Shown here: positions 30,424 to 48,443 of the stretch, in pieces | Layout: every line of letters starts with the position of its first letter | Position numbering within the stretch: the first letter of the stretch is position 1 | Assembly (NCBI GenBank): GCA_030583785.1 | Contig: CP129475.1 | Location: 1,106,209-1,170,208 of the forward strand | From: Candidatus Dojkabacteria bacterium | GTDB lineage: Bacteria; Patescibacteriota; Dojkabacteria; B142; OLB20 | Reading direction: 5' to 3' | DNA length: 64,000 nucleotides | Program-made: the position numbers and the translations under genes | Notes under the pieces: generated by a model | Told to the model about the DNA's origin: nothing | Databases searched by the model: none | Seen by the model: only the letters and a program-made list of their open reading frames with translations

Positions 30424-30791
30424 TGAAATTTTCAAAAACTTTATACGACTATTTTGTATTACTTACGATGCCGTATTTATCGAAGGAAGAATTTCAAGTC
30501 ACAGTTTATATCTGCTCACAATTGTCTTCAAATAACTGTAATTGGGGTTTTGTAAGTAAATCGGTATTGGTTGACGGTTTTCATCCAATTAACAAATTTG
30601 GAGTCATGACAACAGGAGGAAATGGAACTGGACTTACAACCGAACAAGTTATTAAAGGTTTGGAACAAGCAAAAGACAGAGAATTTCTTTTAATAAGCGA
30701 AATTGAAGATGATCCTGATTTGATTAAGGTTGAAATCAATCAAAATTATTTAAAATTTCACGCTTTTGAATATGTTCAAAAAAACATTTAA
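30423..30791 (+). CDS. hypothetical protein (ICE early region)
   Basis: 122 aa. Its stop overlaps the next start. Confidence 0.35.
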   Translation: MKFSKTLYDYFVLLTMPYLSKEEFQVTVYICSQLSSNNCNWGFVSKSVLVDGFHPINKFGVMTTGGNGTGLTTEQVIKGLEQAKDREFLLISEIEDDPDLIKVEINQNYLKFHAFEYVQKNI

Positions 30792-33700
30792 GAACCTTCT
30801 AATTATTGTATTAACAATAATCTCAAGTGGGATTCACAACTTACTGTTAGTTCAGCCAGTTTTTGCAGATTCTTTCTATCCGTCTGCTGATACACTAGAT
30901 TGTAATTTTGCAATGTCCACTTCTGTTTCATACAGAAGTTTACCGATAAACTCTTCAGATGAAAATGGACTTTCATACAATTTAGCTGATGTTTATGGAG
31001 CAAGCGGTAATTATCCTGAAACACATAGAATTACCGATATTACAGATATTACTTATCCTGATGCTCATAGATACAGAGGTGTAGCCGATCGGATTGCTAT
31101 ACCACCGAATACTCGTGTTGATATCGGATTTTATGTTCATAATTATGCTGGACACACAATAACAGCTCATCAAGGATATTTGTTTGTATCAAGGGCAAAT
31201 ACATCAAATGGTGATTGGGGAAGACTTGGAGCAGGTGGAAATGTAGGAAGTATTTCATATGAATATGCAGGTGTAAATCGTGTAAGAAATGGAAGATATG
31301 TAACTACAGGAAATCTTGGAACCTATCCTGCGAATCCTATTAGTAACCCTCCATTAGGGCGAACCATTTATTCATTTACTTCGATTCAACCAATGCAGAT
31401 TCAGTCAAGAACTGCTAATTATGAATTTCTTTCAGGTGGATTATTAAGAATCAGATACGATTTAGTGGTAAGAAATGTGTCTCAATATACATTAAACAAT
31501 ATTAGAGTGTATGATGACCTTCCATCAGGAGAAGTATTTGATGAAACACATACTTTCAATGCAGGTCAGACAAGAGCATTTGTCTATTACGCCAATATGG
31601 GAACGACATATCCCACAAATATAGCAAACTCACCTGCTGTAGTTACTGACCCTAATCGACATAAGGAAGAAGCCTCATTTGCTTCAAATAATATTTTGGA
31701 AACTAATCCTGAATCAAGAACGCTTATTGTAGAGCGAGATGATGCAGGTAGTGGTAATTGGACTGGTAGGCAACCAGACTTTTCTGCTTACTCAGGCGGT
31801 GACTATTACTTTATTGAATTATTACCATACTCAATACGATCTAGTGAAACAACAATAAATGTCCCCCCCAATATTACAATTAATAAGGTAGTTTCAGACC
31901 AAGATGAAGCCAATGTTGAATCAAATGATAGTAATCCTAACGAAGAGATAACATATACGATTACAGCTACAAATACTGGTGGCAACGCTACAGGTGTTAT
32001 TGTTGTTGATGATTATACTGAAACATTTTTAGAAATAATTTCAACTGATGGTGGAAATGATGACGGTAACAGAATAACTTGGGATATAGGGGACTTTAGA
32101 AATCAAGAAACAAGGGTCTTCACAGTAAGAGCAAGAGTAATCGCTCCTCTTTCGCATGGAACATATAATGCACCCAATTCAGTAACGATTGTTAGTGACC
32201 AAACTAATCCTATTTCTGACACAACTCAAACAACAATAACAGCGGAAGTTAGAATGGAAATTGATAAAACAGTTTCAGATAGTGATGAAGCACCGAGTGG
32301 TTCAAATCATATTCAAGGCGGAAATCCCATTAATACTGAAAGACAAGCCACATATAGAATACGAATCTCTAATACTGGTGATGCAGATGCTCACAATACA
32401 GTAATTCATGATGATGTAACTCCAATCTTAAGAAATGGAAGAATTCTCACTATTTCTGATAATGGTGTTTTGACTACTCAAATGAATGGAAGCGGTCAAT
32501 TAACAGGTCAAATTGTTTGGAATATTGGAGATTTGCCTCAAACTGAGACTAAAGAAGTTCAATTCACAGTTCAGTTCAATGCAGGAATTGAAGATAACAC
32601 TCAAATTCAAAACATTGCTGAAGTTAGAACAAATGAAGTGCCACCTGTAAGTGATACTACCTTAACAACTATTCATTCTCCTATTCTTGAAATTATAAAA
32701 GATGATGGTGTCGAAAATGCAGATCCTTCAGATACTATTCATTGGGTAATAACTGTTAGAAATACAGGTACAGGAAATGCCTACAATGTTGAGGTATATG
32801 ACATTGTACCTGAAAGAATGACAGTATCAGATATTTCTGATGATGGTGCATGGGACGGAAACACTCGAAGAGTTGCTTGGAGTACCACTGAGCCACAATA
32901 TATCCTTAATGGTTCATATCAGCCTGATTTAAGGAGTACATGGGGTTCAAACAAAACTCTTACCTTCAATGCAAAGTTAGATGCTATTTTCCCTATTGGA
33001 ACTACTAATCTTACAAATATTGCCATTACAGAAACTTCTTTCTATCCACCTGATCAAACTGAACATAATTTGCCAGTTGAAGCCTATCCTAATAATGATA
33101 TCGAAAAATATGTTATCAATGAAACCTCTGTCGCAAATAACAGAAGCTTTAGTGGTAATAATGTAGATAGTGCAGAATTTGGTGCAGATGCAGATTCAGT
33201 CTTTGGAAATGAAAAAGATGTTCATGCCCTTGCAGGAGACACTTTAAGGTACACCTTAGTCTATAGAAATACAGGAAACGCTCATAGTCCTGATACTTAC
33301 ATATCTGATCATTTGCCAAAATATATTACTGATAGCAACGGAAACAGATTTCAGATAGTTTTACTAAACGATATACACGATGCTTCTGAAGGATTTGTAA
33401 TTACTGAAACAGAAGATGGATTTGATATTGTTTGGGATATTGGTGAATTACAAGTTGGAAATGAATGGAATACAAAATCATTCCGAATAAAATTAAATTC
33501 AGATTCGACTACAACATTATCATCTGAAGATGTCCAAAGATTAGTCAATAATATTTCTGAAATTGGTTCAGAAAACGAACTTGTAAGAATTGATACTGAT
33601 AATGCAATTATTAGAGTAAACCAACCTAATGCAACTATTGAAAAGACTTCTGATAAGATTGAATATCAAAGCGATGAAGAAGTAATTTACACAATTACGA

Positions 33701-34869
33701 TATCAAATATTGGTAATGCGAAAGCTTCAGGTATCGTTAGTGATTCACTCCCCGAAGGGCTATCTTTCAAAAGTACAAACTATGCTTCAGATAAAACACA
33801 AGTTAATGGTAGGGATTTAAGCTTTAATGTCGATTTAGATCCTTATCAATCGATTGAAATTTCTATTACTGCGAGTATAGATATCCCTGTTACTGATTTG
33901 GAAGTCTTCAATAATAAAGCTGTTTATAAATATAAAGACGACAATTCAAATAATAGACCTGATGTTGACGATGATATTGATATCACTGCACATGCCCCTA
34001 TTCTTGAGTTAGTTAAAGAACAAACACTACCTGAATATATTGCTCCTGCACAACCGATTGTTTACACAATCAACTTTAGGAATGTTGGAACTGGATATTC
34101 TCCGAATACTATTCTTACGGACAATTTACCTGAACATGTAACATTTGTTGAATTTTTACCTTCTGACAATGGCTTTACAGGTGTATACGATGAAGCAAAT
34201 CATAGTGTTAGTTGGGATTTGGGTAAACTTGAATCAAATCAAAGCGGTTCAGTTTCTTTCAGAGTAGTAATAGATATTCCTACTCCTGATGGAACAGAAA
34301 TAAAAAATACTGCAATTATTACTAATCCTGTAAGTGATGAAGTAGAAAGTGAAGTTATTACTGCAACTGCGAGTTCATGCTGTATGGGGGGATTCATTTG
34401 GGAAGATGAAAACAGTAACGCTATTTACGATGAAGATGAAAAAGGAATATCGAATGTTAGGATTAATATTAGTTGGGAAGCAACAGAATATCTTCCTGAA
34501 CATAATGTTGATATTTCCACTTCAGAAAATGGACATTATGAATATAACGGACTTCCATATTTTACAGTTTTAACTATCCGAGTCTTTAAACCTCAAGGTT
34601 ACGACAATATTACAACTCCTTCTGAGTTCAAGCTTGTATTACTGCCCCCTACTGATGATGGTGTAAATGAAGATTATGTAAAAGATGGAGTCAGATATTT
34701 AACTGCTTCAGGCTGTAGCAATTTCTTCAATGCAGGGATTTATCGAGATGTAATTATTGCTCAGACTGGTTTATCAGTTCTTATACCACTTTCAATTGGG
34801 ATAGCTCTTATTGGCTCAGGAATAGCCTTAATTAATTTAATTCATAAATCTAAAAAGAAAAAGCAATGA
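30766..34869 (+). CDS. giant cell-surface protein with multiple DUF11 ('conserved repeat domain') Ig-like repeats and a C-terminal sortase-type sorting signal (IAQTG + TM + basic tail)
   Basis: 1367 aa with an N-terminal signal peptide. Blocks such as 'ITYTITATNTGGNATGVIVVDD', 'IHWVITVRNTGTGNAYNVEVYDIVPE' and 'VIYTITISNIGNAKASGIVSDSLPEGL' recur. The C-terminus is '...IAQTG-LSVLIPLSIGIALIGSGIALINLI-HKSKKKKQ'. Confidence 0.7.
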   Translation: MNMFKKTFKNLLIIVLTIISSGIHNLLLVQPVFADSFYPSADTLDCNFAMSTSVSYRSLPINSSDENGLSYNLADVYGASGNYPETHRITDITDITYPDAHRYRGVADRIAIPPNTRVDIGFYVHNYAGHTITAHQGYLFVSRANTSNGDWGRLGAGGNVGSISYEYAGVNRVRNGRYVTTGNLGTYPANPISNPPLGRTIYSFTSIQPMQIQSRTANYEFLSGGLLRIRYDLVVRNVSQYTLNNIRVYDDLPSGEVFDETHTFNAGQTRAFVYYANMGTTYPTNIANSPAVVTDPNRHKEEASFASNNILETNPESRTLIVERDDAGSGNWTGRQPDFSAYSGGDYYFIELLPYSIRSSETTINVPPNITINKVVSDQDEANVESNDSNPNEEITYTITATNTGGNATGVIVVDDYTETFLEIISTDGGNDDGNRITWDIGDFRNQETRVFTVRARVIAPLSHGTYNAPNSVTIVSDQTNPISDTTQTTITAEVRMEIDKTVSDSDEAPSGSNHIQGGNPINTERQATYRIRISNTGDADAHNTVIHDDVTPILRNGRILTISDNGVLTTQMNGSGQLTGQIVWNIGDLPQTETKEVQFTVQFNAGIEDNTQIQNIAEVRTNEVPPVSDTTLTTIHSPILEIIKDDGVENADPSDTIHWVITVRNTGTGNAYNVEVYDIVPERMTVSDISDDGAWDGNTRRVAWSTTEPQYILNGSYQPDLRSTWGSNKTLTFNAKLDAIFPIGTTNLTNIAITETSFYPPDQTEHNLPVEAYPNNDIEKYVINETSVANNRSFSGNNVDSAEFGADADSVFGNEKDVHALAGDTLRYTLVYRNTGNAHSPDTYISDHLPKYITDSNGNRFQIVLLNDIHDASEGFVITETEDGFDIVWDIGELQVGNEWNTKSFRIKLNSDSTTTLSSEDVQRLVNNISEIGSENELVRIDTDNAIIRVNQPNATIEKTSDKIEYQSDEEVIYTITISNIGNAKASGIVSDSLPEGLSFKSTNYASDKTQVNGRDLSFNVDLDPYQSIEISITASIDIPVTDLEVFNNKAVYKYKDDNSNNRPDVDDDIDITAHAPILELVKEQTLPEYIAPAQPIVYTINFRNVGTGYSPNTILTDNLPEHVTFVEFLPSDNGFTGVYDEANHSVSWDLGKLESNQSGSVSFRVVIDIPTPDGTEIKNTAIITNPVSDEVESEVITATASSCCMGGFIWEDENSNAIYDEDEKGISNVRINISWEATEYLPEHNVDISTSENGHYEYNGLPYFTVLTIRVFKPQGYDNITTPSEFKLVLLPPTDDGVNEDYVKDGVRYLTASGCSNFFNAGIYRDVIIAQTGLSVLIPLSIGIALIGSGIALINLIHKSKKKKQ

Positions 34870-35023
34870 TTACATTAGTTGTTTTTATAAGCTTATTTAT
34901 AGTCTATGTCACATTCATATTTTTTCGAGGTGTTCATCGGGAGAAAAAAGACAGAAAGCATAAAAAAGCTAAAGATCCTCTTATTGAGGAAGAAAATCAA
35001 ACTTAAATTATTAAACAAACATA

Positions 35024-35362
35024 ATGAAAGACAAAATAAAGAAAATTAGAAATCTCGTATTAGCAAGTGCATCTTTTCTGATGTATCCATTCATTGCACT
35101 TCAAACTGTTTATGCTCAATCTGATCCAAGTGCTGAAATCTCAGCAATAATTGAAAGGATTGTTACCTTAGCAACTAGAGTCGGTTCAGGTGTATTTATC
35201 CTTTTCATTATCAAAGATGCTTTTGATATGTTGAATAATAAAGATAATCCGCAATATCGGGGTGTTTTAGCAAGAGATATTGTCCTTTTCCTTATTGCCG
35301 CACTATTCCTCTTCAAGCCTGACTTTATTTTAGATGCAATTAAATTCATAGCTAATGTCTAA
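35024..35362 (+). CDS. VirB2/TrbC-like T4SS pilin-like protein
   Basis: 112 aa with signal peptide ending 'VYAQ' and two hydrophobic helices. Positioned at the head of the T4SS block. Confidence 0.4.
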   Translation: MKDKIKKIRNLVLASASFLMYPFIALQTVYAQSDPSAEISAIIERIVTLATRVGSGVFILFIIKDAFDMLNNKDNPQYRGVLARDIVLFLIAALFLFKPDFILDAIKFIANV

Positions 35363-35364
35363 TT

Positions 35365-37416
35365 ATGTTTAATTTCTTCAAGCACTACAAACCAATACAT
35401 GACGAAGCTACTAAGTTTAAAAGCAAAATTCAAAATGCTTCAGAAGAACAAAGAAAGCTTATAAACAAGCTCTTTGTTATTGGGATTGCCCTGATGTTAC
35501 TCATTGGGGCGATCCAATTAGCATTTCTCTTTTTGAATCAGAACACTAATTTACCTTCACCTATTCAACAGATAGAACAAAAAATTGAGGAAACACCTTT
35601 ACCTGATGGTACTGGAGTTCTTGATATACCTGAAGAAGCAAAAGGTCAATCTATACCTAATCCATTTGATCTATTTAATCCTTTCTCAAGTTTTCAAGAG
35701 TCTGTAGTGGATTCAATATCAGAGATTGTTATGCAAGGACTTGAGTTGTTTGATGATTATGTGGCTTTTACTCCTAATATTGCGAAAAATGATGGACAGA
35801 TAGTAGATGCTAGAGGAAACAATATCCCAATAAAAGTAGACAAGTTTTATAACGCTACACAAAGTGTTGCTTGGTTATTGCTTCCTTTAGTAATTGTTAT
35901 GACTGGTACATATTTAGTTCTGGAAGGCTCAGTTAAAGGCATTTATTTGCTTCAAGAAATCGCTAAAAAGACAATACTTTTTGTTATTGGAATGGTTGCA
36001 ATGCGATTTATATTTGCAACTGCAATCGATCTTACCAATGCACTAGATCGTTTTGTATTAGCAAGATTAGTAGCTACTAGCTCAACAGGTACATTGTCTG
36101 AATCCCTATTAGTGTCATTAGGAATGCAGATAACTGATCAAAAACTTGAGTTTTCAGTTACTTCGGTTATGAATGTCTTCTCCGAAATCATTTTATGGAT
36201 TGGACTGTTCTTTTTACTAACAACATTACTATTTCAGTTTATTATCCGATTCTTTCATGTGCTTTTGCACATGATTATGTTTCCAATTGTTTTTATTGTT
36301 GGACTTCTTCCAAGTGGTGAAGAATTTTTCAAGTCATACATTGAGGAAACACTAAGAGCTTTGTTTATGCAACCAATATTTTTAGTTGGTATAGGTATAG
36401 CACTCGAAATTATTAAAGGTGTTAACGAACCTATTCCAAAAGTCATACTTGGGCTTGGCTCACTTGCATTCCTAAACTTAATCCCTGCTATTGTAAATCG
36501 TTTCTCAGGTATCTTATGGGGTGTTGGCGGAGGTATTGCAGGAGGTATTGTTGCAGGAGCAACAATTGATCAAGCAAGAAAAGCTAAGGAAGGTATCGTT
36601 GCTGGAATGTCAGGAGGAAAATCTAACTCTGTAAGATCATGGGCAAGTAAAGCACTTGGGGAATCTATTGTTTCTAAACTACCAATGGGAAATACAGCAA
36701 GTAAGGTTGCTGATACTGGTCTAGCAATTCAAAGTGGTATTGCAAAGACAAAAGGAGTTGCAGGAACATTTAAAAATGCAGTTTCTTCAGGTGAAAGTTC
36801 CAAAAAGGCTTTTGCAACACTTGGAATGAAACCGCTTGATAATCGAGCATTAAAAGATGCAGGAAGTAAAACTTTATATTCGCTCTCGCCAAATACAGAA
36901 AAGATTCAAGATTTATCTGTAAAAGACAGCACTCTGCTAAACAATGGTCTGAAACAATCGACATTTTCATCTGTATTCAACAGTTCAGCTCTAGTTGAAG
37001 AACCTGCAAATATAAATCAAATGATGGATTTGTCACTAATCTCATTTTCAAATCCAAATACTTCACAGTATATAAACGAAGCTGTTCAGTCAGTACCAAC
37101 TGAAATCAATCAGGGAAGAACTTTCGATACAACAAATCAAAAACATTGGGGACATATAACGGATTGGTATACAAAAAACGAATTACTTACTGGTGCAAAA
37201 CCAAATGTTATTGAGAAGTTTGTACAAAATCCTGAAAACAGAATGGGAATTATATCTAAAGCTACAAATGAAGGATATTTCCAATCACAAGGGATTCAAA
37301 CTGTAAAAATAGTTGATCAAGTTCAAGGTCAAAATCCAGTTTCAAAGTATTACCCAGTAAACAATAAGTTAATTCAAAGTAATAATGCAGGAAATCGTAC
37401 CACCAAAACTAAATAG
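35365..37416 (+). CDS. VirB6/TcpH-like polytopic T4SS channel protein
   Basis: 683 aa with more than 6 TM helices and a long Gly/Ser-rich extracellular tail. Confidence 0.4.
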   Translation: MFNFFKHYKPIHDEATKFKSKIQNASEEQRKLINKLFVIGIALMLLIGAIQLAFLFLNQNTNLPSPIQQIEQKIEETPLPDGTGVLDIPEEAKGQSIPNPFDLFNPFSSFQESVVDSISEIVMQGLELFDDYVAFTPNIAKNDGQIVDARGNNIPIKVDKFYNATQSVAWLLLPLVIVMTGTYLVLEGSVKGIYLLQEIAKKTILFVIGMVAMRFIFATAIDLTNALDRFVLARLVATSSTGTLSESLLVSLGMQITDQKLEFSVTSVMNVFSEIILWIGLFFLLTTLLFQFIIRFFHVLLHMIMFPIVFIVGLLPSGEEFFKSYIEETLRALFMQPIFLVGIGIALEIIKGVNEPIPKVILGLGSLAFLNLIPAIVNRFSGILWGVGGGIAGGIVAGATIDQARKAKEGIVAGMSGGKSNSVRSWASKALGESIVSKLPMGNTASKVADTGLAIQSGIAKTKGVAGTFKNAVSSGESSKKAFATLGMKPLDNRALKDAGSKTLYSLSPNTEKIQDLSVKDSTLLNNGLKQSTFSSVFNSSALVEEPANINQMMDLSLISFSNPNTSQYINEAVQSVPTEINQGRTFDTTNQKHWGHITDWYTKNELLTGAKPNVIEKFVQNPENRMGIISKATNEGYFQSQGIQTVKIVDQVQGQNPVSKYYPVNNKLIQSNNAGNRTTKTK

Positions 37417-38149
37417 AGAAACAGGTATTCTTTCAATAATACTAAACAGAAGGAATTTCCTTGTTCTAGTAGCAATACTGCTATCTTTCACTATATGGTC
37501 AACAGAGATTCTAAATACTCCTGATCAAAAAATACTTGCTGAATTAGTCTTAGGAGGACTGCTTATTCCTTTTATGTTTGACGCTTATGGAAGACCGCTT
37601 CATGTTTACTTAATTGATGGTATTAAGCATGTATTCTCAAAAAAGAGACAAAGAATTGTACTTGGAAAGGATATTTCGGAAGGAATAATTATTGTTAATG
37701 ATTATCAGTATTCAAGGGTTTTTCAAATTGAACCGATTAACCTTTCGATGAGTAGTGAAGAAGATATTTATGCTTTTAAGAAATATTTACAACAAGCCTT
37801 ATTTGCACTTAAGCATCAAATCCAAATTATCACAATTCAGAAGCATTCAACACATGATAAAGCATTAGAGACAGAAATCGGTAGATACAAAAACCTCAAA
37901 GGGAAACTTCAAGATGAATGTAAATCATATTTGTTAGCTTACCAAGATTTGACTCTAACAATGGAGAGAAGCTTCTATCTTGTCTTAACAGCTTACGCTA
38001 AGGGTTTAGATGATGCAAAACTTAAGCTTGAGGATCAAGAGAATTCATTTGGAAAGTTATTAGAGCAAACCAAAGTGAGACTTATCCCTTTATCAACTCA
38101 AGAAATACTGAATTTGTCTAATCATATTTTATTAATAGCTGAAGAATGA
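37385..38149 (+). CDS. T4SS-associated membrane protein, hypothetical
   Basis: 254 aa with an N-terminal TM. It is translationally coupled between the VirB6-like and VirB4-like genes. Confidence 0.35.
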   Translation: MQEIVPPKLNRETGILSIILNRRNFLVLVAILLSFTIWSTEILNTPDQKILAELVLGGLLIPFMFDAYGRPLHVYLIDGIKHVFSKKRQRIVLGKDISEGIIIVNDYQYSRVFQIEPINLSMSSEEDIYAFKKYLQQALFALKHQIQIITIQKHSTHDKALETEIGRYKNLKGKLQDECKSYLLAYQDLTLTMERSFYLVLTAYAKGLDDAKLKLEDQENSFGKLLEQTKVRLIPLSTQEILNLSNHILLIAEE

Positions 38150-39975
38150 ACCCTATTAAGTATTTTGCAACACAATCAAAATGGGCATGGCAAGATTTGA
38201 ATTTTAAAATCGAGTCAAAAGGTCGTGAATATATTCGTGATGGAATTATTAAACAGGAAATTGCAAAGCTATCTCCTGACGATTCATTGGTTTACGAATT
38301 TATCAATAAAGGAAAGTTTATTGATCTTGGGAATGGAATCATTCAAACCTACATGATATCTGAATTTCCTCAGATTATTTATCCTAATTGGCTTTACGAT
38401 TTAACTAATTACAGCGAACCAATTGTTTTATCACAGTTTATAAAGCCAATAGATCCGCAAAAAGCACTTGCAGGACTTAGAAATAGAATAACTAATCTTT
38501 CAGCTCAATATTATGAACGAGCAGAAAAAGGAAAAGTTCATACTTCTGACTTAGAACAAGCAATTGCAGATGCACGAAGCATTGAAGATGCAATTGTTAG
38601 AGGTGTTGAAAAGCTTTACTCAATGACTATGTACATAAAGTTAGATTCAATTAACGAAAAACTCTTGAGTAAAAGTGATAAAAGCCTAAAGGATCTAACT
38701 TTCGCTAAACAAATTGAGCTACATCAACTTGTTTTCAAACAATCTGAAGGGATTGAATCATTCTTACCAAAAGGAGTTGATAAAGTTAGTGAAGAGTTCT
38801 ATCTCACAAGTTCCAATGTTTCGTCATCGTTACCATTTACTACTGCAACACTTAATGATCCTGACGGAATATTTTATGGAATAACAATAGGTGGTGAAAA
38901 GATTCGTTTTGACAGATTCTCTAAAACCTCCAAAAATTTTAACGGAATTATCTTTGCTACTTCAGGTGCAGGAAAGAGTTTTTCAGCGAAATTAGAGGCA
39001 TATAGGAGCTTGTTTAGGGGGATTAATGTTTATGTCATTGATCCTGAAGGTGAATTTAGAACCCTATGTAATGCAGTCGGTGGTACAAATATCGATATCA
39101 ATCCTGAAAGCCCAACAAAGGTAAATCCACTACAGTTTTTCTCAAGTAATGTTGATTCAAAGGAAGTAATGAGAACCCATTTAGGAGTTGTTAAAGGGCT
39201 TCTGAAGATTTGGTTATCGAGTAAAACATACAATAGAGGGATTATTAGTAAAGCTGTAAATAATGCTTACGCTTCAAAAGGAATAATACTTGAAGATCCC
39301 TCAACATACTCAAAAGAACCTCCAACTGTATCAGATTTGATAGCTAGTTTTGAAAAAGAAAGTGCTGATGGAAAACAAATCGCAGTTGAATTACTAGAAT
39401 ATTCAAAAAAAGGTGAACTCGGAGATCTTTACGATAATGCTTCAACAAGTGATGTTAATTTTAACTCTCCAATGGTTGTATTCAATATTCAGAAAGTACC
39501 TGACCAAGAGAAACAAGCTTCAATTTTCTACTTATCAAATTTTATATGGCAAAAAGTTTTATCAAATAGGAAAAGAAAGGTTTTGATAATTGATGAGGCT
39601 CACTTACTCCTAAAAGATGAGTCTTCAGCGAACTTTATTGAAAATCTTGTAAGACGAGGAAGAAAATATAATCTCGGAGTCATTTGTATTTCACAAGATG
39701 TTGACGATTTCCTTAATTCACCTCAAGGAAGTGTTATTGCGAAGAATGCTGATACAGCTCTGATACTTGCTCAAAAGAAACAATCAATACCAAACTTAGC
39801 TAAAGCGTTTGATCTATCAGATATTGAAAAAGACTACATAACAAGACTGACCAAAGGTCAAGCCTTGTTTATCAAAGGAAATACTCATTCTCATATTTAT
39901 ATTTACGCTACTCCTCATGAAAGGCAACTTTATTCATCGAGTGCTGAAGAATTAGCTAAAAATGATAAAAAATAA
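38146..39975 (+). CDS. VirB4/TraC/TrsE-family conjugal-transfer ATPase
   Basis: 609 aa. Walker A 'ATSGAGKSF', Walker B 'KVLIIDEAHLLL', and 'ICISQDVDDF' typical of VirB4-like proteins. Confidence 0.7.
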   Translation: MNPIKYFATQSKWAWQDLNFKIESKGREYIRDGIIKQEIAKLSPDDSLVYEFINKGKFIDLGNGIIQTYMISEFPQIIYPNWLYDLTNYSEPIVLSQFIKPIDPQKALAGLRNRITNLSAQYYERAEKGKVHTSDLEQAIADARSIEDAIVRGVEKLYSMTMYIKLDSINEKLLSKSDKSLKDLTFAKQIELHQLVFKQSEGIESFLPKGVDKVSEEFYLTSSNVSSSLPFTTATLNDPDGIFYGITIGGEKIRFDRFSKTSKNFNGIIFATSGAGKSFSAKLEAYRSLFRGINVYVIDPEGEFRTLCNAVGGTNIDINPESPTKVNPLQFFSSNVDSKEVMRTHLGVVKGLLKIWLSSKTYNRGIISKAVNNAYASKGIILEDPSTYSKEPPTVSDLIASFEKESADGKQIAVELLEYSKKGELGDLYDNASTSDVNFNSPMVVFNIQKVPDQEKQASIFYLSNFIWQKVLSNRKRKVLIIDEAHLLLKDESSANFIENLVRRGRKYNLGVICISQDVDDFLNSPQGSVIAKNADTALILAQKKQSIPNLAKAFDLSDIEKDYITRLTKGQALFIKGNTHSHIYIYATPHERQLYSSSAEELAKNDKK

Positions 39976-40844
39976 TGGAAAATAAAGAGATTAGAAAAAA
40001 CTTAAAACATGGGTATTTATTTTTATCAATAATCCTGTTGGTTATTTTTGCTACATCTCTTTCTATCGAAATATATCTTAAAGGCGGATTTAAGTTTAAC
40101 TTCTCATCATCGAATACTGATAACTCAAATATCGAAGAATTAGTTGATACAAATGTAACAGATAATTCAGATATCTTTCTTGAATTTCAAAATATAACCG
40201 AAGGCTTTAAGACAAAGGAAAGTAAAATCATAATTGTTGCAAAAACTGACTTAGGAAATAAAGCATGGATTAATTCAAAGGAAATAACAGTTAATCCTGA
40301 AGGACTTTTTGAAAGCGAAATTGAACTTATTGTTGGCTCAAACGAAATTGTTATTGAGGCAGAAAATCCTAATAATCAAAAATCATTAAAAAAGATAAGT
40401 GTTACAAGGGAATCAGATCCTATTCCAACTGAAAAGCCAAAAGTTGAACCAAAAGTCGAGAAACCAGTTGTAAATACACCTATTCCAAAAGTTGAACCAA
40501 CACCTATCATTAAGCCAAATCCCGAACCTCAACCAACGCCAACTATAACAGCATTGAAGTTGAATTGTTCTATTACAAATACACAACCAAAAGTTGACCA
40601 AACTGTATCTCTTGATTGCACAGTCAAAGATCAGAACTCAAACCTAATCAATGGAGCTAATGGCACAGCATCAATAAATTGGCAATCAGGAGTTCAAACC
40701 ATTTCATTCCCAAACTCACAAAATGGATCTATGAAAATTAGTTTTGTTGTTCCTGCAAATAATAATGGAACTATTTCAGGAAGTGTTCGAATATCCAAAG
40801 ATGGATTAACTGTTACATCTAATTTTTCAATTATTGTGCAATAA
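39975..40844 (+). CDS. membrane-anchored extracellular protein with Pro-rich linker (T4SS accessory)
   Basis: 289 aa with an N-terminal TM and a 'PKVEPKVEKPVV...PNPEPQPTPT' linker. Confidence 0.4.
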   Translation: MENKEIRKNLKHGYLFLSIILLVIFATSLSIEIYLKGGFKFNFSSSNTDNSNIEELVDTNVTDNSDIFLEFQNITEGFKTKESKIIIVAKTDLGNKAWINSKEITVNPEGLFESEIELIVGSNEIVIEAENPNNQKSLKKISVTRESDPIPTEKPKVEPKVEKPVVNTPIPKVEPTPIIKPNPEPQPTPTITALKLNCSITNTQPKVDQTVSLDCTVKDQNSNLINGANGTASINWQSGVQTISFPNSQNGSMKISFVVPANNNGTISGSVRISKDGLTVTSNFSIIVQ

Positions 40845-41906
40845 ATGGAAGAAAATAAGCCACTACAAGCAACTAAAAATGCTATAGAGATTGGAGATAG
40901 CCTTCTTGGTGATACATTAGGTTTAGCTTCAAATAAAGTTGCTCCTGTAGTTGGCCCATTAGTCGTAAACATTTTGTGGAAGAATAAATGGAACATTCTA
41001 CTGTTTGGGATTGTATTTCTATGCTTTGGTGTCTTTGTGCTTGAATCGATAGCGTATCAGGTACTTGCAGGTTATAGAGAAATCATTAATGAAATTCCAA
41101 AGGATCATAAAGAATGTATTGAAAAATCAAGCCGAAAATACGATTTAGAATTTGAACTTGTTGCTTCATACGGAAAAGTGATAGCCAATTTTGATAGCAC
41201 TCACAAAGGCTCAGGTATTGGGTTATTGGAAATAACTCAGTCTGATTGGGATAAGGCAAAGACTGACGGAAGCGGTAATAATGAGGTCTCAGCTGATGAA
41301 CTGTGTGATAACTATTTTACACTTGCAAATCTACTCTCACAAAACTCAGGAGATTCTAAAGAAAAGATTTACGCATATTCATACCCTAAGAAAGATGAAG
41401 TATACGAGCAATACCAAATGTATGTTGGATTAATGCTTATTCCTTATGGTAATCCAGTCGGCTTAAATAGATCAGATTTAATAACAGTTACCTCAGGCTA
41501 CAACATTGTCAGAGTAATTGATGGATATAGGCATGTTCACAAAGGAGTTGATCTTGTACCTTCATCTCAATGGTACAAAGAAAATCAAGGTAAAGGCTCA
41601 ACTGATGCAGTTAATAGAGCGATTATTTCAGGTACAGTCTCAAATTTCAAAGATGGGAATGGTGCATTGTGTTCATACATTACAAATATGTTTTATCGAG
41701 TTATGTACTGTCATTGTGATGCCATTATTGCTCAAGATGGAGCAAATGTTAGATATGGAGATCCGATTTGTTTTATGGGCAGTACAGGGTTCTCTACAGG
41801 TGTTCATACGCATGTAGGAGTTTATGAGAAGAATGGTTTAGGAGGTTGGAACAATATTGATCCGACCCCATTTTTATTTCCAATCAGAAATAATGGAAAC
41901 AATTGA
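40845..41906 (+). CDS. bifunctional cell-wall hydrolase: lytic transglycosylase-like (SLT) + M23 (LytM) peptidase domains
   Basis: 353 aa. SLT-like 'GSGIGLLEITQSDW'. M23 motifs 'YRHVHKGVDL' (HxxxD) and 'GVHTHVG' (HxH). Confidence 0.6.
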   Translation: MEENKPLQATKNAIEIGDSLLGDTLGLASNKVAPVVGPLVVNILWKNKWNILLFGIVFLCFGVFVLESIAYQVLAGYREIINEIPKDHKECIEKSSRKYDLEFELVASYGKVIANFDSTHKGSGIGLLEITQSDWDKAKTDGSGNNEVSADELCDNYFTLANLLSQNSGDSKEKIYAYSYPKKDEVYEQYQMYVGLMLIPYGNPVGLNRSDLITVTSGYNIVRVIDGYRHVHKGVDLVPSSQWYKENQGKGSTDAVNRAIISGTVSNFKDGNGALCSYITNMFYRVMYCHCDAIIAQDGANVRYGDPICFMGSTGFSTGVHTHVGVYEKNGLGGWNNIDPTPFLFPIRNNGNN

Positions 41907-43230
41907 GAAAAACACAATTGAAATACTAGATACAACGCTTAAGCATGGGTTTTCGCAAATACCCAGAACTGTACTTAAAGCTAAAAACTTAAGTATGCAG
42001 TCTAAAACGCTTTATGCTTTGTTACTTGATTATGCTTGGCAAAAAGATCAATGTTTTCCAGGGCAAGATAGACTAGCTACAGACTTAGGAGTTCATAGGA
42101 ATACTATTCAGAAATATCTGATTGAACTACGAACCTTTAAGCTTATTAAATGGGTAAGACGAGGTTTAAAACAAACGAACATTTACTACATTTTACCGAT
42201 AAATCATCTCATTCAAAATCTACCTGATGCACAAGCACGAGTGCATCAAGATTCACAAGATAATGTGCATACAGTTGCCCAAACAACTGTGCATAAATTA
42301 GAAGAAGATGAATATAAGAAGAAAGAATATAAAAAGCCGTTATCGTTAAGCAACGCCAACGAACAATTAAATCTTAATACTTTTGATACAGAAGCTTTAG
42401 TTATCGCAAAGGAACTCAATGATGAAAAAAGCATTAAATTTTACCAAAAGATTGTTAATCAAAAGAAAAAAGGTGAAATTGCTGATGAAGATATTGTTTC
42501 TGCACTTGATGACACAAGACGAATGGTCAGAACTGATCAAGTGGATGGAAAACGATTTCTTAGAAATCCTGCAAGTTGGTTTGTCTCTACTTTGCAAAAG
42601 CTCACTCAAAAGCGGAAGGAAAAAGAACAAAAAGTGAAAGTCGAATCAATGTTGGAAAAGTTCCACAAGTCCTTTACCTTAAAGATTGTTGTATTAATAA
42701 CCTCACTTTTACTTGTCGGTTTTAATATAAATATACCTGTCTATGCTTCTGAAAATATAGATATCACGATAGATAGCGTATTTGAAGCACATAACCAAAT
42801 TAGAAAAGAAAACAGTCTTCCCGAATTTATTCTTAATGAAGAGCTAACCAAAAGTGCATACCTAAAAGCTGTTACGATGAAGTTTCAAAAATGTTGGTCG
42901 CATTACTGTCCTGATTCTCCATGGGGGAATTTTAGTGTTGTTGGATATGAATATGAAATCGCAGGAGAGAATCTTGCTCATGGCTTCACTGATCCTGATG
43001 TTTTGATAAAAGCTTGGCTTGATAGCCCAACTCATAAAGCAAACATAATGAACGATAAATACTCAGAAATTGGGATTGCTGTGATTGAATCTTCATTCTT
43101 AGACGATTCAACTGACAAGATTGTTGTTGTTCATTTCGCAAAGCCTAAATTGAACCCACTAAATAACGATTTTTTAGCATTTCAGAACAAAATAATATTA
43201 GGAAACAAACTATGTTGGAGCAACTATTAG
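41857..43230 (+). CDS. three-part protein: N-terminal winged-HTH (replication-initiator/HTH_36-like), central TM helix, C-terminal extracellular CAP/SCP/PR-1 domain
   Basis: 457 aa. N-terminus 'LYALLLDYAWQKDQCFPGQDRLATDLGVHRNTIQKYL'. TM 'IVVLITSLLLVGF'. CAP signature 'KAWLDSPTHKANIMNDKYSEIGIAV'. Confidence 0.5.
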   Translation: MIRPHFYFQSEIMETIEKNTIEILDTTLKHGFSQIPRTVLKAKNLSMQSKTLYALLLDYAWQKDQCFPGQDRLATDLGVHRNTIQKYLIELRTFKLIKWVRRGLKQTNIYYILPINHLIQNLPDAQARVHQDSQDNVHTVAQTTVHKLEEDEYKKKEYKKPLSLSNANEQLNLNTFDTEALVIAKELNDEKSIKFYQKIVNQKKKGEIADEDIVSALDDTRRMVRTDQVDGKRFLRNPASWFVSTLQKLTQKRKEKEQKVKVESMLEKFHKSFTLKIVVLITSLLLVGFNINIPVYASENIDITIDSVFEAHNQIRKENSLPEFILNEELTKSAYLKAVTMKFQKCWSHYCPDSPWGNFSVVGYEYEIAGENLAHGFTDPDVLIKAWLDSPTHKANIMNDKYSEIGIAVIESSFLDDSTDKIVVVHFAKPKLNPLNNDFLAFQNKIILGNKLCWSNY

Positions 43231-45860
43231 AAAATAGCATATTAATATTTGGGCTGACTATCTCAATTATTTCCACTCTTGGATTAATAAGTTGGTACTT
43301 TTTTCAGCTATTCATTTCACGCAGGAGTTCAAGAAATATTAATGGTTTTGTGATGCAGGTTATACCACCTAAATATTCATCGTTAGAAGTTAAGACAAAA
43401 CAAGGAGAAAGATTCGCTTTACAAAGATTTGTAGATAACCTAACAGCTTCAGCTAAAAACAATAGAATTTCTTTTGAAATATATGCAGATAGTGATGGCA
43501 TTAAATTTCTTGTTTGGACACCATCAAAACAAATACAAGACTTAATAAAGCTTAATTTATACAGTACTTACAAGGAACGAGTAAAAATACAGACTCTCGA
43601 TAATGATCCTTTAAAAGAGTTTAACCTTAATGAATCTACAATAAACGAGTATAAGAGTCTTAAGCATGATGTTTATATGCTTATGGATGTTCGAGATTTT
43701 GAAAGCATGGATCCAGTAACCGATATTCTTACTTCTATGACTAACATGGAGTCAGATAATAAAATGCTATTTCAGTTAGTATTAAGCCCTTCAAGAATTG
43801 ATAAAGAGGCTTTGAGAATGGCTAAAGAGAACTTTAGGCTCTTAAGATCTGAAATTACATGGTTTTCAGTTTTTCTTAATCATTTCGAGGTATATTTACT
43901 ATATTTTATCCCACTACTGCCATTCCTTATTTTTAAAGCACTCTCTGAAGTTTCAAGATCATTTTCAGCTAGACCTGAAAATATTGATCCTATGGTATTG
44001 CTCTCCGACCAAGACCCTAGAAAAATACTTGTAGATAAAGACTCACTACAAAATTTCTTTAGTTTAATGGACGAAAAGTATAAGACTTCGTTCACAACCT
44101 ACATTCGAGTTATTGCACAAGGAAATCAAAAGTTTGAGAAATTAAATAGTATTGAACAGTCTTTGGAATCGATGAAAAGTGAGACTCAGAATAGATTAGT
44201 TCGCAAATTATCTAATAAATATACTGATTTAGAGCAACGCTTCATTTACCCTGAAAGTAGTATTTTTCCCTTCTATCGTGAGCTATTCACTTCTCAAGGA
44301 GCTTTATCATCAAGAGAAATTTCGATGATTTACCATCTTCCATCTAAAATTTTCGATCCTGTTATTGAGCATTTTGTATCTCCTGATATTCCAGTTAAAA
44401 AAGAATACAGGACAAAGCATCAAAACTCAGACCTAAAACTTGGAATTAATAACACTCACGAAAAGCAATATGGTGTTTACTTACCTACTGAAAATAGAAA
44501 GAGACATTTAGTTGTTACAGGTCAAACAGGTACAGGGAAATCCACAATACTTAAGAACTTTATATTGCAGGATATAGATAATAATCTTTTAAAGGGTGAA
44601 AAAAGAGGGTTAATACTAATGGATCCTCATGAGGACTTCTTTATGGATTTATTAAAACGACTCCCAGAGAACTACAAAGAAAGTAAAAAGCTAATTGCTT
44701 GGGATACACAAAGTGAAGAATGGTATTTCGGGTTTAATCCAATTTATGCGGTTGGTATGACTGAAAGAGAAATTGATTTAACAATTGATTCTAATTTCAA
44801 ACTTATCGAAAAGATTATCAAGAGGGCTAATCCTGAAGTCGGTATGGGTATGACAGGAAAACCGATGTTACTAAATGCAATGAAAACTTTAATGGTGTTT
44901 CAAAATGAATGGGTTAATAAACATAATTCAACAATCGAAGCGACTAGCCTTATGGATAAAGTAGCACCAACACTACTAGATGTAAGAACACTTTTATTTG
45001 ATGAGAAATTTTCTGAAACAATTAAAAAGTTCATAGATTTTGATAAATATGAAGGTTTAAGAACATTTTGGAATGTCACATTACCTAATTACAAAAAATC
45101 TCAAAACTGGGCTGAGATACAACAGGGTTTTGATAATAAGCTCTCTCAAATACTTACTGGTATTTTGATGTATACATTCGGGCAATCTAAAAGCTCAGTT
45201 AATATTGCGGATATTATCCGTAAGTCAAAAGTATTACTTGTAAACCTATCGTCAAAAAACATCGGTGAAGAAGGCATGAGTTTGCTTGGATCTCTGTTAA
45301 TTTCAAAGATATGGTTTGAATCTAAAAGAATTGCTGAAAATGATCGAAAGCCTTTTGTAGTTTATGCTGATGAGTTTCAAAACTTCGCTAGTTCTGATTT
45401 TTCACAGGCTTTATCTGAAGCAAGAAAGTTTAAGCTTGAATTGATACTTGCTCACCAATTCTTTCAACAACTTCCTGACGATGTATTTCATGCGGTTATG
45501 GGCAATGTGAAGAACAAAGTCTATTACCGATGTGGTTTAGAAGACTGCCAAATAATCTCTAAGGATTTACAAGGTAAGGTATTAGAGCAAGAGGTAATGG
45601 AAGTACCTGAATTTCATGCGAATGTAAAAGCAGGTGAAGATGTGTTTTCAATATATATACCAAAAGAACGAGATACGACTATTTCAGTTGTTGAAGTTAA
45701 AGCTTTTATAGATAGTAACTATAAAGCTCTTGGTAAAAGTAGAAAATCGATTGATTCTGAAATAGTAAATCGCAGGAATTGGATACTGAAAGGTTGCAAA
45801 ATAGAGGTATCCAATGAGATTACTGATGGATTGTCCTTGCAATCAGGAGAAATCCTTTAA
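43212..45860 (+). CDS. type IV coupling protein (VirD4/TraG/TcpA-like FtsK-fold ATPase)
   Basis: 882 aa with an N-terminal TM, Walker A 'VVTGQTGTGKST' and Walker B 'FVVYADEFQNF'. Confidence 0.65.
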   Translation: MLEQLLENSILIFGLTISIISTLGLISWYFFQLFISRRSSRNINGFVMQVIPPKYSSLEVKTKQGERFALQRFVDNLTASAKNNRISFEIYADSDGIKFLVWTPSKQIQDLIKLNLYSTYKERVKIQTLDNDPLKEFNLNESTINEYKSLKHDVYMLMDVRDFESMDPVTDILTSMTNMESDNKMLFQLVLSPSRIDKEALRMAKENFRLLRSEITWFSVFLNHFEVYLLYFIPLLPFLIFKALSEVSRSFSARPENIDPMVLLSDQDPRKILVDKDSLQNFFSLMDEKYKTSFTTYIRVIAQGNQKFEKLNSIEQSLESMKSETQNRLVRKLSNKYTDLEQRFIYPESSIFPFYRELFTSQGALSSREISMIYHLPSKIFDPVIEHFVSPDIPVKKEYRTKHQNSDLKLGINNTHEKQYGVYLPTENRKRHLVVTGQTGTGKSTILKNFILQDIDNNLLKGEKRGLILMDPHEDFFMDLLKRLPENYKESKKLIAWDTQSEEWYFGFNPIYAVGMTEREIDLTIDSNFKLIEKIIKRANPEVGMGMTGKPMLLNAMKTLMVFQNEWVNKHNSTIEATSLMDKVAPTLLDVRTLLFDEKFSETIKKFIDFDKYEGLRTFWNVTLPNYKKSQNWAEIQQGFDNKLSQILTGILMYTFGQSKSSVNIADIIRKSKVLLVNLSSKNIGEEGMSLLGSLLISKIWFESKRIAENDRKPFVVYADEFQNFASSDFSQALSEARKFKLELILAHQFFQQLPDDVFHAVMGNVKNKVYYRCGLEDCQIISKDLQGKVLEQEVMEVPEFHANVKAGEDVFSIYIPKERDTTISVVEVKAFIDSNYKALGKSRKSIDSEIVNRRNWILKGCKIEVSNEITDGLSLQSGEIL

Positions 45861-45917
45861 TTAAGTTTATTTAATTTATGAAAATGCTGTTCCTTCCGCC
45901 AATTTCAGTCTCGGTAT

Positions 45918-45958
45918 GAGTGATTGGGTGGACTTCTTCGAACTCCACCCAATCACTC
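45918..45958. repeat. perfect 15-bp-stem hairpin (GAGTGATTGGGTGGA / TCCACCCAATCACTC, 11-nt loop)
   Basis: Seen directly in the intergenic region between the coupling-protein gene and the relaxation-like gene. Not followed by a T-run. Candidate oriT or terminator. Confidence 0.5.
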
Positions 45959-46043
45959 CCTCGACTACGATTAATGGTGTGTGTACCCTTAATCTAATCC
46001 GATGGATTGAACTTGGCGGTGCGGAACATAAATATAAATAAAT

Positions 46044-46940
46044 ATGGAAAATATTAGAATAACATACAATCAAATAGAACTAGTAGATACTATACATTCA
46101 TTCAGGTACTTACCTCTTAAAGTATTAATAAAAATTGCAAAAAAACAAAATCTCTATTCACATAAACAAAACTTAGGACGAATCATAATTAAACTTGAAA
46201 AACGAGGTTATATAAAATCTTTCTTCTATGGCAACAATTGGAAAGTTTTATATATTACGAAATTGGGCGGTGAATTATTGACTCAAGCGAAAGGAATATT
46301 GGCAAAAGACTTGTCTGTGCCAAATCAAAATGGAAAATTACAATTTGCCATGCTTGAGCATACGGTGAGTATTGCAGAGCTATACGAACAGTTGACCGAT
46401 CAATTACCAAATTATACGAATTTACGACTTGTAGACTGGCAAGGCGATCAAAAATGTTTCTACCAATATACGATTCGTGTTTACGATTCAGGAAGGAATC
46501 AGAAACGAAACCTTTCTCCCGATTCGTACTTTAAACTCATTAAAGGTGATGAAAGCATAGAATTCTTTCTAGAGTACGATACGGGGCAAATGGATAAAGA
46601 CCAACTGGCACGAAAGTTTATGCGGTATTTTGAATATTTCATATATGGTAACTGGAAGGAGAGTTTTCTAACTTTCCCTTCAATACTTTTCGTAACTGAG
46701 CGTTCTGAAAAAGAAATTTCAAAATTAGTTGTTCAAGACAACTTTAATATTGAACAGGCTTTAGAAAACAGAAATCAGTTTACTGATTCTGACAATGTTA
46801 TTTACAGAGGTATTGGTTATTCCGATAACCTTAAAAGCTATAGCTTTGAGGAAATAACATCTTTTCTAAAAACTAGAATTATATTTACGAAAAAGAATGA
46901 AATATGGTCAAAACAATTACTCGAGAAGTTATCGCAATAA
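46044..46940 (+). CDS. replication-relaxation family-like protein (putative relaxase/replication-initiator of the element)
   Basis: 298 aa. Its size and N-terminal wHTH-like region resemble PF13814-type proteins of Gram-positive ICEs. Weak, context-based call. Confidence 0.35.
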   Translation: MENIRITYNQIELVDTIHSFRYLPLKVLIKIAKKQNLYSHKQNLGRIIIKLEKRGYIKSFFYGNNWKVLYITKLGGELLTQAKGILAKDLSVPNQNGKLQFAMLEHTVSIAELYEQLTDQLPNYTNLRLVDWQGDQKCFYQYTIRVYDSGRNQKRNLSPDSYFKLIKGDESIEFFLEYDTGQMDKDQLARKFMRYFEYFIYGNWKESFLTFPSILFVTERSEKEISKLVVQDNFNIEQALENRNQFTDSDNVIYRGIGYSDNLKSYSFEEITSFLKTRIIFTKKNEIWSKQLLEKLSQ

Positions 46941-47440
46941 CAGGAATTGTTTTGGTTTTGTTTGGGATCTTTGTTTTCTACCAAACGACTTCTCCTGAAG
47001 TTGCTTATCAACTAAAACCTCCTGATATTCAGGAATTAACTCTTTCAGCCGAGACGACTGAAGATTTATCCGTAAACAGATTAATAATTCCTGCTATTGG
47101 AGTTGATATGCAGATTGGTTCAGAGAAACGATTTCTTGATTTTGGAGGCTGGGTACAATCCTCAAATCAAGAAAATGAACCTAATCTTATCGCAATTCAT
47201 AGGTTTGGTTGGGACAATCTTTCTCCTGAACAGAAAATAAAGCAAACTTTATACCATGTTCAGAAACTTAAAGGTGGCGACAAAATATATCTGATATGGA
47301 ATGGTGAAAGATATCAATACGAAGTTACAGATTTAATAGATGATACTAACAACCCACCAATTACCGACGACTTAGTTTTATACACCTGCAAATTCTTCAA
47401 CAGTTCACATCGGATATTTGTTCAGACGAAAAGGATTTGA
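46904..47440 (+). CDS. small sortase-like transpeptidase
   Basis: 178 aa with an N-terminal TM. His in 'LIAIHRFGW', Cys in 'LVLYTC' (as in TLxTC), and a downstream Arg ('FVQTKRI'). Confidence 0.4.
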   Translation: MVKTITREVIAITGIVLVLFGIFVFYQTTSPEVAYQLKPPDIQELTLSAETTEDLSVNRLIIPAIGVDMQIGSEKRFLDFGGWVQSSNQENEPNLIAIHRFGWDNLSPEQKIKQTLYHVQKLKGGDKIYLIWNGERYQYEVTDLIDDTNNPPITDDLVLYTCKFFNSSHRIFVQTKRI

Positions 47441-47588
47441 ACACACACCTTTTAACAAAAGGTAGAAAACTTTAAATAATCACTTTTGAAGGGGTAAACC
47501 CCATAAATATTATTCATAATTAGTTAAGGATTATTTAATTTTTGATCAGTACAATTTAGATATATCTAAATTGTTAAAGGAAAAGCCT

Positions 47589-47705: not shown

Positions 47706-47711
47706 CAAGGA

Positions 47712-48397: not shown

Positions 48398-48404
48398 AAA
48401 AGAA

Positions 48405-48436: not shown

Positions 48437-48443
48437 CTAAATT

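Follow-up and report, generated by a model that had tools for sequence, protein, structure and literature searches.

A putative integrative and conjugative element of Dojkabacteria with its own sortase and a candidate mating adhesin

Why should a gene block resembling a conjugation system, present in a 64,000-nucleotide (nt) stretch of DNA from a member of the Dojkabacteria (Patescibacteria/candidate phyla radiation, CPR), open with the gene for a very large surface protein and close with the gene for a small sortase-like protein? That stretch, analysed over its whole length, is referred to below as the window, and all coordinates are window positions. The answer reached is that the block is probably the transfer module of a recently mobile integrative and conjugative element (ICE), located at the 3′ end of a tRNA-Gln gene and equipped with a sortase-anchored mating adhesin that would serve its type IV secretion system (T4SS).

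Family assignments were made by Pfam and NCBIfam searches, PDB sequence searches, AlphaFold2 (AF2) models and Foldseek comparisons with the PDB, and defence cargo was assigned by PADLOC. Seventeen related loci, including one on the complete Dojkabacteria chromosome CP129477.1, were extracted from species-representative genomes with VirB4 as the anchor. Comparison at both ends was made with 12 of these, the others being either interrupted by a contig end (L010, L015, L018 and L019) or representative of an unrelated T4SS (L021).

The adhesin, its sorting signal and the sortase

The argument begins with three features:

30766–34869, plus strand: surface adhesin of 1367 amino acids (aa), assigned from Pfam, NCBIfam, orthologues and a model of its head.
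34756–34866, plus strand: sorting signal of the adhesin, consisting of IAQTG (34756–34770), a hydrophobic segment (34771–34842) and HKSKKKKQ (34843–34866).
46904–47440, plus strand: membrane-anchored sortase of 178 aa, assigned from TIGR01076, PDB entry 2kw8, PF04203 matches of its relatives, an AF2 model and Foldseek.

The adhesin is laid out as a signal peptide, an all-β head of ~340 aa, a stalk of DUF11 repeats, an SdrD-B domain and a cell-wall sorting signal. Pfam returned five DUF11 stretches (E = 3e-51) with overlapping matches to DUF7619, DUF7507 and DUF7927, together with one SdrD_B domain at residues 1207–1280 (nt 34384–34605), and NCBIfam recorded seven DUF11-type repeats. The N-terminus, MNMFKKTFKNLLIIVLTIISSGIHNLLLVQPVFA followed directly by DS, reads in translation as a probable signal peptide, and the C-terminus runs through NAGIYRDVIIAQTG and LSVLIPLSIGIALIGSGIALINLI to HKSKKKKQ, with the pentapeptide in the context YRDVIIAQTG. 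IAQTG occupies residues 1331–1335, and is succeeded by 24 hydrophobic residues and a basic tail of eight; the coordinates which the original prediction had assigned to the pentapeptide proved exact in translation.

Pentapeptide, hydrophobic segment and basic tail were all retained in each of 20 database orthologues sharing 45–78% identity with the adhesin, the pentapeptides being LAQTG (nine), IAQTG (five), FAQTG (two), and IADTG, IAETG, FADTG and LAKTG (one each). The same tripartite signal was recorded in 14 genome loci as IAQTG, LAQTG, IAETG or IADTG, and the consensus for the resultant 34 orthologue entries is [I/L/F]-A-[Q/D/E/K]-T-G. Because position 3 varies (Q/D/E/K) while the hydrophobic residue at position 1, Ala, Thr and Gly are fixed, the motif is, as judged from these alignments, of the known LAxTG type, and the non-canonical 'XXQTG' motif first put forward has to be abandoned. 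A plain C-terminal transmembrane (TM) anchor was also considered and rejected, the pentapeptide being better conserved than the TM segment after it in orthologues and loci alike, and the tail first recognised as a sorting signal consequently retains that status. A six-frame scan of the window revealed no second protein combining pentapeptide, hydrophobic segment and basic tail, and each related locus encodes exactly one sorting-signal protein.

The head (residues 1–375; 30766–31890) was modelled as an all-β domain (predicted local distance difference test, pLDDT, 81.7) for which the PDB offered no convincing match (TM ≤ 0.25). Relative to P0025, the closest orthologue overall, the adhesin is a mosaic in which the head is 42%, the stalk 91% and the C-terminus 97% identical, and other orthologues in the set P0025–P0044, more distant ones included, have heads of 61–70% and stalks of 59–66% identity. 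Because head and stalk identities are distributed in this mosaic manner, the head would fit the role of a swappable specificity domain, and at least two head types seem to have been exchanged between elements. Orthologue lengths range from 932 to 1395 aa with a single outlier of 784 aa, the difference residing in the number of DUF11 repeats.

The 178-aa protein carries an N-terminal hydrophobic helix, the motifs AIHRFG (His99) and LYTC (Cys162), and Arg170; the 5′ end of its open reading frame (ORF) shares 37 nt with the 3′ end of the Replic_Relax gene. A PDB sequence search matched it to Bacillus anthracis SrtA (2kw8; E = 4.5e-4), all eight of the matches listed at E ≤ 10 being sortases or sortase-like proteins. 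Database relatives numbered 24 at 41–96% identity, some labelled Dojkabacteria or Patescibacteria, and among ten relatives (four close, six wider) for which names and sources were consulted, one close relative bore a Dojkabacteria name and one wider relative was named just 'sortase'. His99, Cys162 and Arg170 were invariant in an alignment of 21 relatives; in a wider alignment of 69 sequences His99, Thr161 and Cys162 were invariant and Arg170 nearly so. Twelve of the 21 close relatives matched the Pfam Sortase family PF04203 (E ≤ 0.01; best E = 2.5e-7). The AF2 model (pLDDT 83.7) consists of an N-terminal membrane helix followed by eight strands, and its best 50 Foldseek matches in the PDB were all sortases, of classes A, C and D (E = 1e-7 to 2e-5).

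A profile search of 1.8 billion representatives returned 888 proteins at E ≤ 1e-3, comprising a tight family of 12 at E < 1e-30, then a score gap, then generic sortases, and the family profile yielded no gain over the single sequence when directed at PDB sequences. The wider relatives matched class D, C and E models with no preference. Class E sortases are distinguished by a conserved Tyr in a lengthened β3/β4 loop, a long β6/β7 insertion and, in Actinobacteria, LAxTG signals (PMC5148588). Membership of that class was rejected: the protein gave no match to the class E model NF033747 at E ≤ 1, and both alignment and AF2 model delimit a β3/β4 loop of only five residues (88–92, NQENE) that lacks the class E Tyr and a β6/β7 loop of ~10 aa (residues 148–157) that lacks the 21-residue class E insertion. 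The protein is a divergent, minimal sortase outside the described classes and, to go by the signal with which it is associated, a compact enzyme of probable LAxTG specificity. The sortase identity initially proposed is accordingly borne out by the fold, and profiling against the sortase classes upheld membership of the superfamily without yielding a class. Three supports stand against a chance association: the conserved tripartite signal, its uniqueness in the window and in each locus, and the invariant catalytic residues of the sortase.

The transfer module and its site of integration

The genes lying between the adhesin and the sortase, preceded by one conserved upstream gene, are:

30022–30423, plus strand: conserved protein of 133 aa upstream of the adhesin, with 40–66% identical copies in 11 related loci and no significant Pfam match.
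35024–35362, plus strand: VirB2/TrbC-like pilin of 112 aa (Pfam TrbC E = 0.002 and T4SS_pilin E = 0.003, both under the curated cut-offs), 52–99% conserved in related loci.
35365–37416, plus strand: polytopic membrane protein of 683 aa, inferred from position to be VirB6-like (long hydrophobic stretches; syntenic in all relatives; no family match in Pfam or NCBIfam).
37385–38149, plus strand: TrsD-like protein of 254 aa, a homologue of the VirB4 N-terminal domain (NCBIfam VirB4_plasma E = 2e-10, model positions 28–275 of 894).
38146–39975, plus strand: VirB4 ATPase of 609 aa (VirB4_plasma E = 2e-86; CD1110 family E = 2e-83; Pfam P-loop_TraG and AAA_10).
39975–40844, plus strand: membrane-anchored protein of 289 aa with a proline-rich linker and an immunoglobulin-like domain (translation; weak Glucodextran_B match; syntenic in all relatives), a candidate wall-spanning part of the T4SS.
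40845–41906, plus strand: peptidoglycan hydrolase with a C-terminal M23 peptidase, in the VirB1 role (Pfam M23 E = 6e-8; PDB LytM E = 7.5e-6).
41857–43230, plus strand: protein with HTH_36, TM segment and CAP domain (Pfam; HTH_36 is of the replication/DNA-binding type).
43212–45860, plus strand: membrane P-loop ATPase of 882 aa, VirD4/TraD-like (TIGR03743 E = 5e-8, TrwB E = 0.005, TrwB_AAD_bind E = 0.0035).
46044–46940, plus strand: Replic_Relax (PF13814) protein of 298 aa (Pfam E = 1.3e-13; 51.9 bits against a cut-off of 25.3).

Gene order proved identical in all 12 loci that reach both ends, and runs from the adhesin through the pilin-like protein, the 683-aa membrane protein, the TrsD-like protein, VirB4, the 289-aa protein, the M23 hydrolase, the HTH_36 protein, the 882-aa ATPase and the Replic_Relax protein to the sortase. 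Bracketing by adhesin and sortase holds down to identities of 35% for the sortase and 33% for the adhesin. By way of contrast, the genes to the right of the sortase vary between loci, and the adhesin–sortase pair is therefore core and not cargo. The dedicated sortase/substrate pair envisaged for a monoderm-type conjugation module is thus fixed together in every one of the 12 loci, and this position on either side of the T4SS, in conjunction with the overlap of the sortase start with the relaxase gene, forms the basis for pairing the two.

The T4SS looks related to MPF-FATA (MPF, mating-pair formation) rather than FA, since the models that best match VirB4 are those of the Mycoplasma-ICE family (VirB4_plasma) and the CD1110 family, a TrsD-like protein is encoded separately, and the VirB4s of Patescibacteria fall within MPF-FATA (PMC12102498). 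The closest plasmid relatives of this VirB4 are CD1110-family genes from Firmicutes and Actinobacteria, at ≤28% identity. The hydrolase had been described as an SLT + M23 enzyme, of which the M23 part was substantiated by Pfam and by the PDB match to LytM, and the SLT part was detected neither by Pfam nor by PDB sequence search. PF13814 corresponds to the CONJscan MobC profile (PMC5357655), and MOBC is the relaxase class commonest in Patescibacteria (PMC12102498); the Replic_Relax protein, for which the PDB held no relative, is a candidate MOBC-type relaxase. The 882-aa ATPase adjoins the relaxase gene in relatives too, and its profile matches weakly suggest a coupling-protein-like function. 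Most related elements retain only the HTH_36 half of the 41857–43230 protein, the CAP half being missing; as a separate observation, it is topologically odd for a DNA-binding protein to combine, as that ORF does, an HTH_36 domain with a hydrophobic segment and a CAP/SCP domain of extracellular type.

To the left of the module lie the features that bear on integration:

27253–27326, plus strand: tRNA-Gln(CTG), the integration target (ARAGORN).
27264–28784, minus strand: large serine recombinase (integrase) of 506 aa (Pfam Resolvase, Recombinase and Zn_ribbon_recom).
28777–29427, minus strand: HTH_3 + Peptidase_S24 (LexA/CI-like) repressor (Pfam E = 8e-27 and 1e-12), conserved in L006, L007, L008 and L017.
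29456–29604, unstranded: divergent promoter-like region and candidate operator (two 11/12 sigma-70-like consensus matches on opposite strands).

The left junction of the element falls at 27324/27325, the 3′ end of tRNA-Gln. Two genomes, L022 (GCA_019454465.1) and L023, located via the identical sequence of the chromosomal protein just left of the tRNA, are 99.3–99.4% identical to the window over 18354–27324 and break from it exactly past the tRNA, where they carry pyruvate kinase, iPGM and LepA genes and no element. Three short contigs stop precisely at the same junction. Scanning of metagenomes with the protein from the chromosomal flank gave no match. GC content falls from ~0.38 to ~0.33 at about 28 kb. 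In relatives the recombinase adjoins tRNA-Glu, tRNA-His or tRNA-Ser, so that four different tRNA genes are involved in all. It is because a near-identical genome has an empty site and relatives sit at other tRNAs that the element is regarded as a recently mobile ICE.

Targeting of tRNA genes by a large serine recombinase is unusual. The final ~20 codons of the recombinase ORF are antisense to tRNA-Gln (27264–27326) and lie to the left of the empty-site junction, an overlap repeated in L014 (386–460), L015 (425–499) and L017 (433–525); either attP contains a tRNA-identical segment, or the C-terminus of the enzyme is not the same in the integrated state as in the excised one. In the interval from the S24 repressor to the transfer genes lies a 13-nt perfect inverted repeat (29498–29510 and 29561–29573), and by its sequence 29456–29604 looks like a repressor-controlled switch region.

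The clade defined by the element VirB4 (≥68% identity) contains roughly 80 clusters at 90% identity, and other Dojkabacteria VirB4s, P0311 and P0324 among them, lie across a gap at only 30–36% identity. This apparent second, distant VirB4 of Dojkabacteria (L021 is among the entries) is distinct from that of the element and presumably belongs to a resident Patescibacteria T4SS; resident and element systems may occur in one cell. One metagenome-assembled genome (CAZCSM01) was also observed to contain two members of the element family that differ from each other, L008 and L011. Near-identical elements bear the labels Micrarchaeota, Nomurabacteria, Delongbacteria or Saccharibacteria (L010, i.e. 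JAHKLX01, and P0241 and P0286 among the entries), which probably reflects mis-binning or loose naming; cross-lineage transfer may also lie behind them.

Function of the pair and competing explanations

The events envisaged are as follows. The adhesin would leave the cell by Sec via its N-terminal signal peptide, and the hydrophobic segment and basic tail at its C-terminus would keep it in the membrane until the element's own membrane-anchored sortase cuts it between the Thr and Gly of (I/L)A(Q/E/D)TG and passes it to a cell-wall precursor. The head, conserved in fold and swappable, would then be displayed on the DUF11-repeat stalk, its most likely role being donor–recipient contact (mating-pair formation) for the T4SS, beside the VirB2-like pilin. 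Anchoring of the large surface adhesin in the cell wall is the most likely task of the element sortase, and it may be conjectured that possession of its own enzyme frees adhesin display from the sortase content of a small host genome. There is a precedent in the Clostridium perfringens plasmid pCW3, whose plasmid-borne SrtD is needed for efficient transfer according to the work as cited in PMC8225981.

A number of results weigh against a sortase-anchored mating adhesin on a mobile ICE. Even with the threshold relaxed to E ≤ 10, Pfam did not match the window protein to a sortase, and because of this silence its identity had to be drawn from relatives, NCBIfam, PDB sequences and fold; moreover, the NCBIfam match itself (TIGR01076; E = 3e-5, 23.8 bits) falls under the curated cut-off of 39.35. 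The matches of the 882-aa ATPase are weak and confined to the Walker A region, and a coupling-protein profile built from nine orthologues found nothing in the PDB. Searches of the window for an attR or tRNA-derived repeat were negative and revealed no right end; it also lacks the sequence that comes after the empty site, which places the right end beyond 64000 and gives the element a length of more than 36.7 kb. Inactivation of the sortase of the C. sordellii plasmid pCS1-1 had little effect on transfer (PMC5770547), most Patescibacteria T4SSs are held to be non-conjugative and to serve epibiotic growth (PMC12102498), and attachment to a host bacterium would be an equally plausible use of the adhesin.

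Such attachment constitutes the main rival to recipient contact: the pair would be real, and would fasten an epibiont to a surface or to the bacterium that hosts it, so that the element would carry it for lifestyle or host range and not for mating, an outcome considered unlikely. Exchange of the head between near-identical elements, as in the comparison with P0025, is what a receptor-specificity determinant would exhibit, but recipient specificity explains it equally well. Cultivated Patescibacteria do live on host bacteria, with T4SS genes essential for such growth (PMC12102498, PMC12857230), and the pCS1-1 sortase is dispensable for transfer (PMC5770547); against this must be set the overlap of the sortase with the relaxase gene, and the status of adhesin and sortase as invariant core genes around the T4SS when the true cargo to the right varies.

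That the sortase is instead a class C-like polymerase, joining the adhesin, alone or with another subunit, into a covalent fibre, seems very improbable. Class C sortases do figure among the best fold and hidden Markov model (HMM) matches, and the module has no other obvious long appendage besides the small VirB2-like pilin. Each locus, however, has a single sorting-signal protein; a second subunit was not seen, though no pilin-motif search was made; and the enzyme is minimal (178 aa), with no more than short helices separating the membrane helix from the first strand in its model. Finally, the suggestion that the T4SS is a resident, non-conjugative Patescibacteria system beside an unrelated island, sortase and adhesin being surface genes of the chromosome like any others, draws on a survey in which most Patescibacteria T4SSs were chromosomal, relaxase-less and immobile (PMC12102498), but is disfavoured to the point of being scarcely credible by the absence of the whole block, from recombinase to cargo, in a 99.4%-identical genome, by its presence at four different tRNA genes, by a relaxase-family gene above the Pfam cut-off plus a weakly supported coupling-type ATPase, and by a VirB4 just 30–36% identical to those of other Dojkabacteria.

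Relation to known systems, and the remainder of the window

The sortase-anchored mating adhesin proposed here most closely recalls two clostridial plasmids, pCW3 (Tcp, SrtD) and pCS1-1 (srtB plus a CnaB protein by the cst locus), likewise monoderm conjugative elements which, next to their T4SS genes, encode a sortase of their own and a surface protein that is rich in repeats and serves as a sortase substrate. Their hosts are nevertheless Firmicutes and the elements plasmids, as opposed to a tRNA-integrated ICE in Dojkabacteria; they deploy LPxTG-type signals with class D and B sortases as opposed to an LAxTG-type signal and an unclassed sortase; and they have no VirB2-like pilin, whereas the element has one. 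The comparison with the proteins of pCW3 and pCS1-1 covers gene content and the shared sortase fold.

PrgB (aggregation substance) of the MPF-FATA plasmid pCF10, the classic mating adhesin that promotes mating-pair formation, is, like the adhesin, a large wall-anchored protein encoded with a T4SS and bearing a C-terminal sorting signal (PMC12857230). It differs in having an LPxTG signal, a host housekeeping sortase and a polymer adhesin domain, where the element adhesin has DUF11, SdrD-B and an unmatched head; Pfam detected no polymer adhesin (GbpC-type) domain in the 1367-aa protein. The analogy with PrgB drawn at the outset is thereby sustained as a functional resemblance and not as a shared domain, and the adhesin is not a member of the PrgB family. 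Class E sortases of Streptomyces (SrtE1/E2) and Corynebacterium act on LAxTG substrates, with Ala for Pro at position 2 as in the adhesin (PMC5148588), but by comparison with SrtE1 the element sortase is half the size and has no class E HMM match, no class E Tyr and no long β6/β7 insertion.

Chromosomal T4SSs of Patescibacteria (Quinonero-Coronel et al. 2025, PMC12102498) share with the element an MPF-FATA-like VirB4 plus a separate TrsD, one or more VirB2-like pilins, a VirB6-like protein and an M23-type hydrolase; in that survey TrsD was the commonest T4SS component and VirB2-like pilins were typical. The same survey reported no adhesins, found relaxases to be rare and coupling-protein genes to be mostly far from virB4, and presumed these chromosomal systems to be non-conjugative. 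By way of contrast, adhesin, sortase, coupling-type ATPase, MOBC relaxase and recombinase are here contiguous in a polymorphic insertion. Full-text literature searches yielded no account of the element or of sortase–substrate pairs in Patescibacteria. A sortase plus adhesin on conjugative elements is accordingly known from clostridial plasmids and new for Patescibacteria; what is new here is the host phylum, the VirB2-like pilin in this combination, the minimal unclassified sortase with an LAxTG-type signal, and tRNA targeting by a serine recombinase.

A broader joint reading, put forward tentatively and judged less likely than not, is that of a widespread self-transmissible element family native to Patescibacteria. 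It would pair a VirB2 pilin of diderm style with a wall-anchored adhesin of monoderm style, would install the latter by means of a minimal sortase from a new lineage in which LAxTG specificity arose separately from class E, and would have its range of recipients or host bacteria set by the swappable head. If true, it would contrast with the view of Patescibacteria T4SSs as almost wholly non-conjugative and adhesin-free, the only systematic survey having concluded that they were co-opted for non-conjugative roles (PMC12102498). Dojkabacteria, at least, do host what looks like a complete, recently mobile conjugative element, its coupling ATPase a candidate, and hence a concrete route for horizontal gene flow among ultra-small bacteria, with defence cargo (restriction and an OLD nuclease) on board. 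Organisms that are very hard to manipulate might gain a genetic tool in the serine integrase and its tRNA attB, taken together with a transfer origin, and a compact sortase outside the known classes, of probable LAxTG specificity, is also on offer.

Two further features lie to the right of the module:

47441–48103, unstranded: non-coding stretch of ~660 nt after the sortase (sequence scan for repeats).
48104–60425, plus strand: cargo comprising a DUF2958 protein, SNF2 helicase, DUF4391 protein, type III Mod, Res and an OLD-family nuclease (Pfam, PADLOC).

The non-coding stretch contains a 24-nt perfect palindrome (47551–47574), a 10-bp GC-rich hairpin (47712–47737) and further inverted repeats, features that make it a candidate terminator (or terminator cluster) and/or origin of transfer (oriT) for the adjacent MOBC relaxase. 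Within the defence cargo (49671–60425) PADLOC identified the SNF2 helicase as 'HKD+Snf2' (E = 6e-126), together with MTase_III (E = 1e-211), REase_III (E = 2e-285) and Old, the OLD-family nuclease (E = 1e-76); unannotated ORFs occur beyond it at 60428–61465 and 61707–62819. In the region past DUF2958, a 33-nt hairpin-forming repeat (ACCTTTGAGGGTGG..ACCCTCAAAT) is present in two copies that are 91% identical (48404–48436 and 49309–49341), each positioned 3′ of a small gene. On the chromosomal side of the window, 3993–7421 codes for a 1142-aa protein in which a complete phosphoglucomutase (PGM_PMM I–IV) is fused to an α-glucan phosphorylase domain, its neighbours being GH15, α-amylase and other sugar-metabolism genes.

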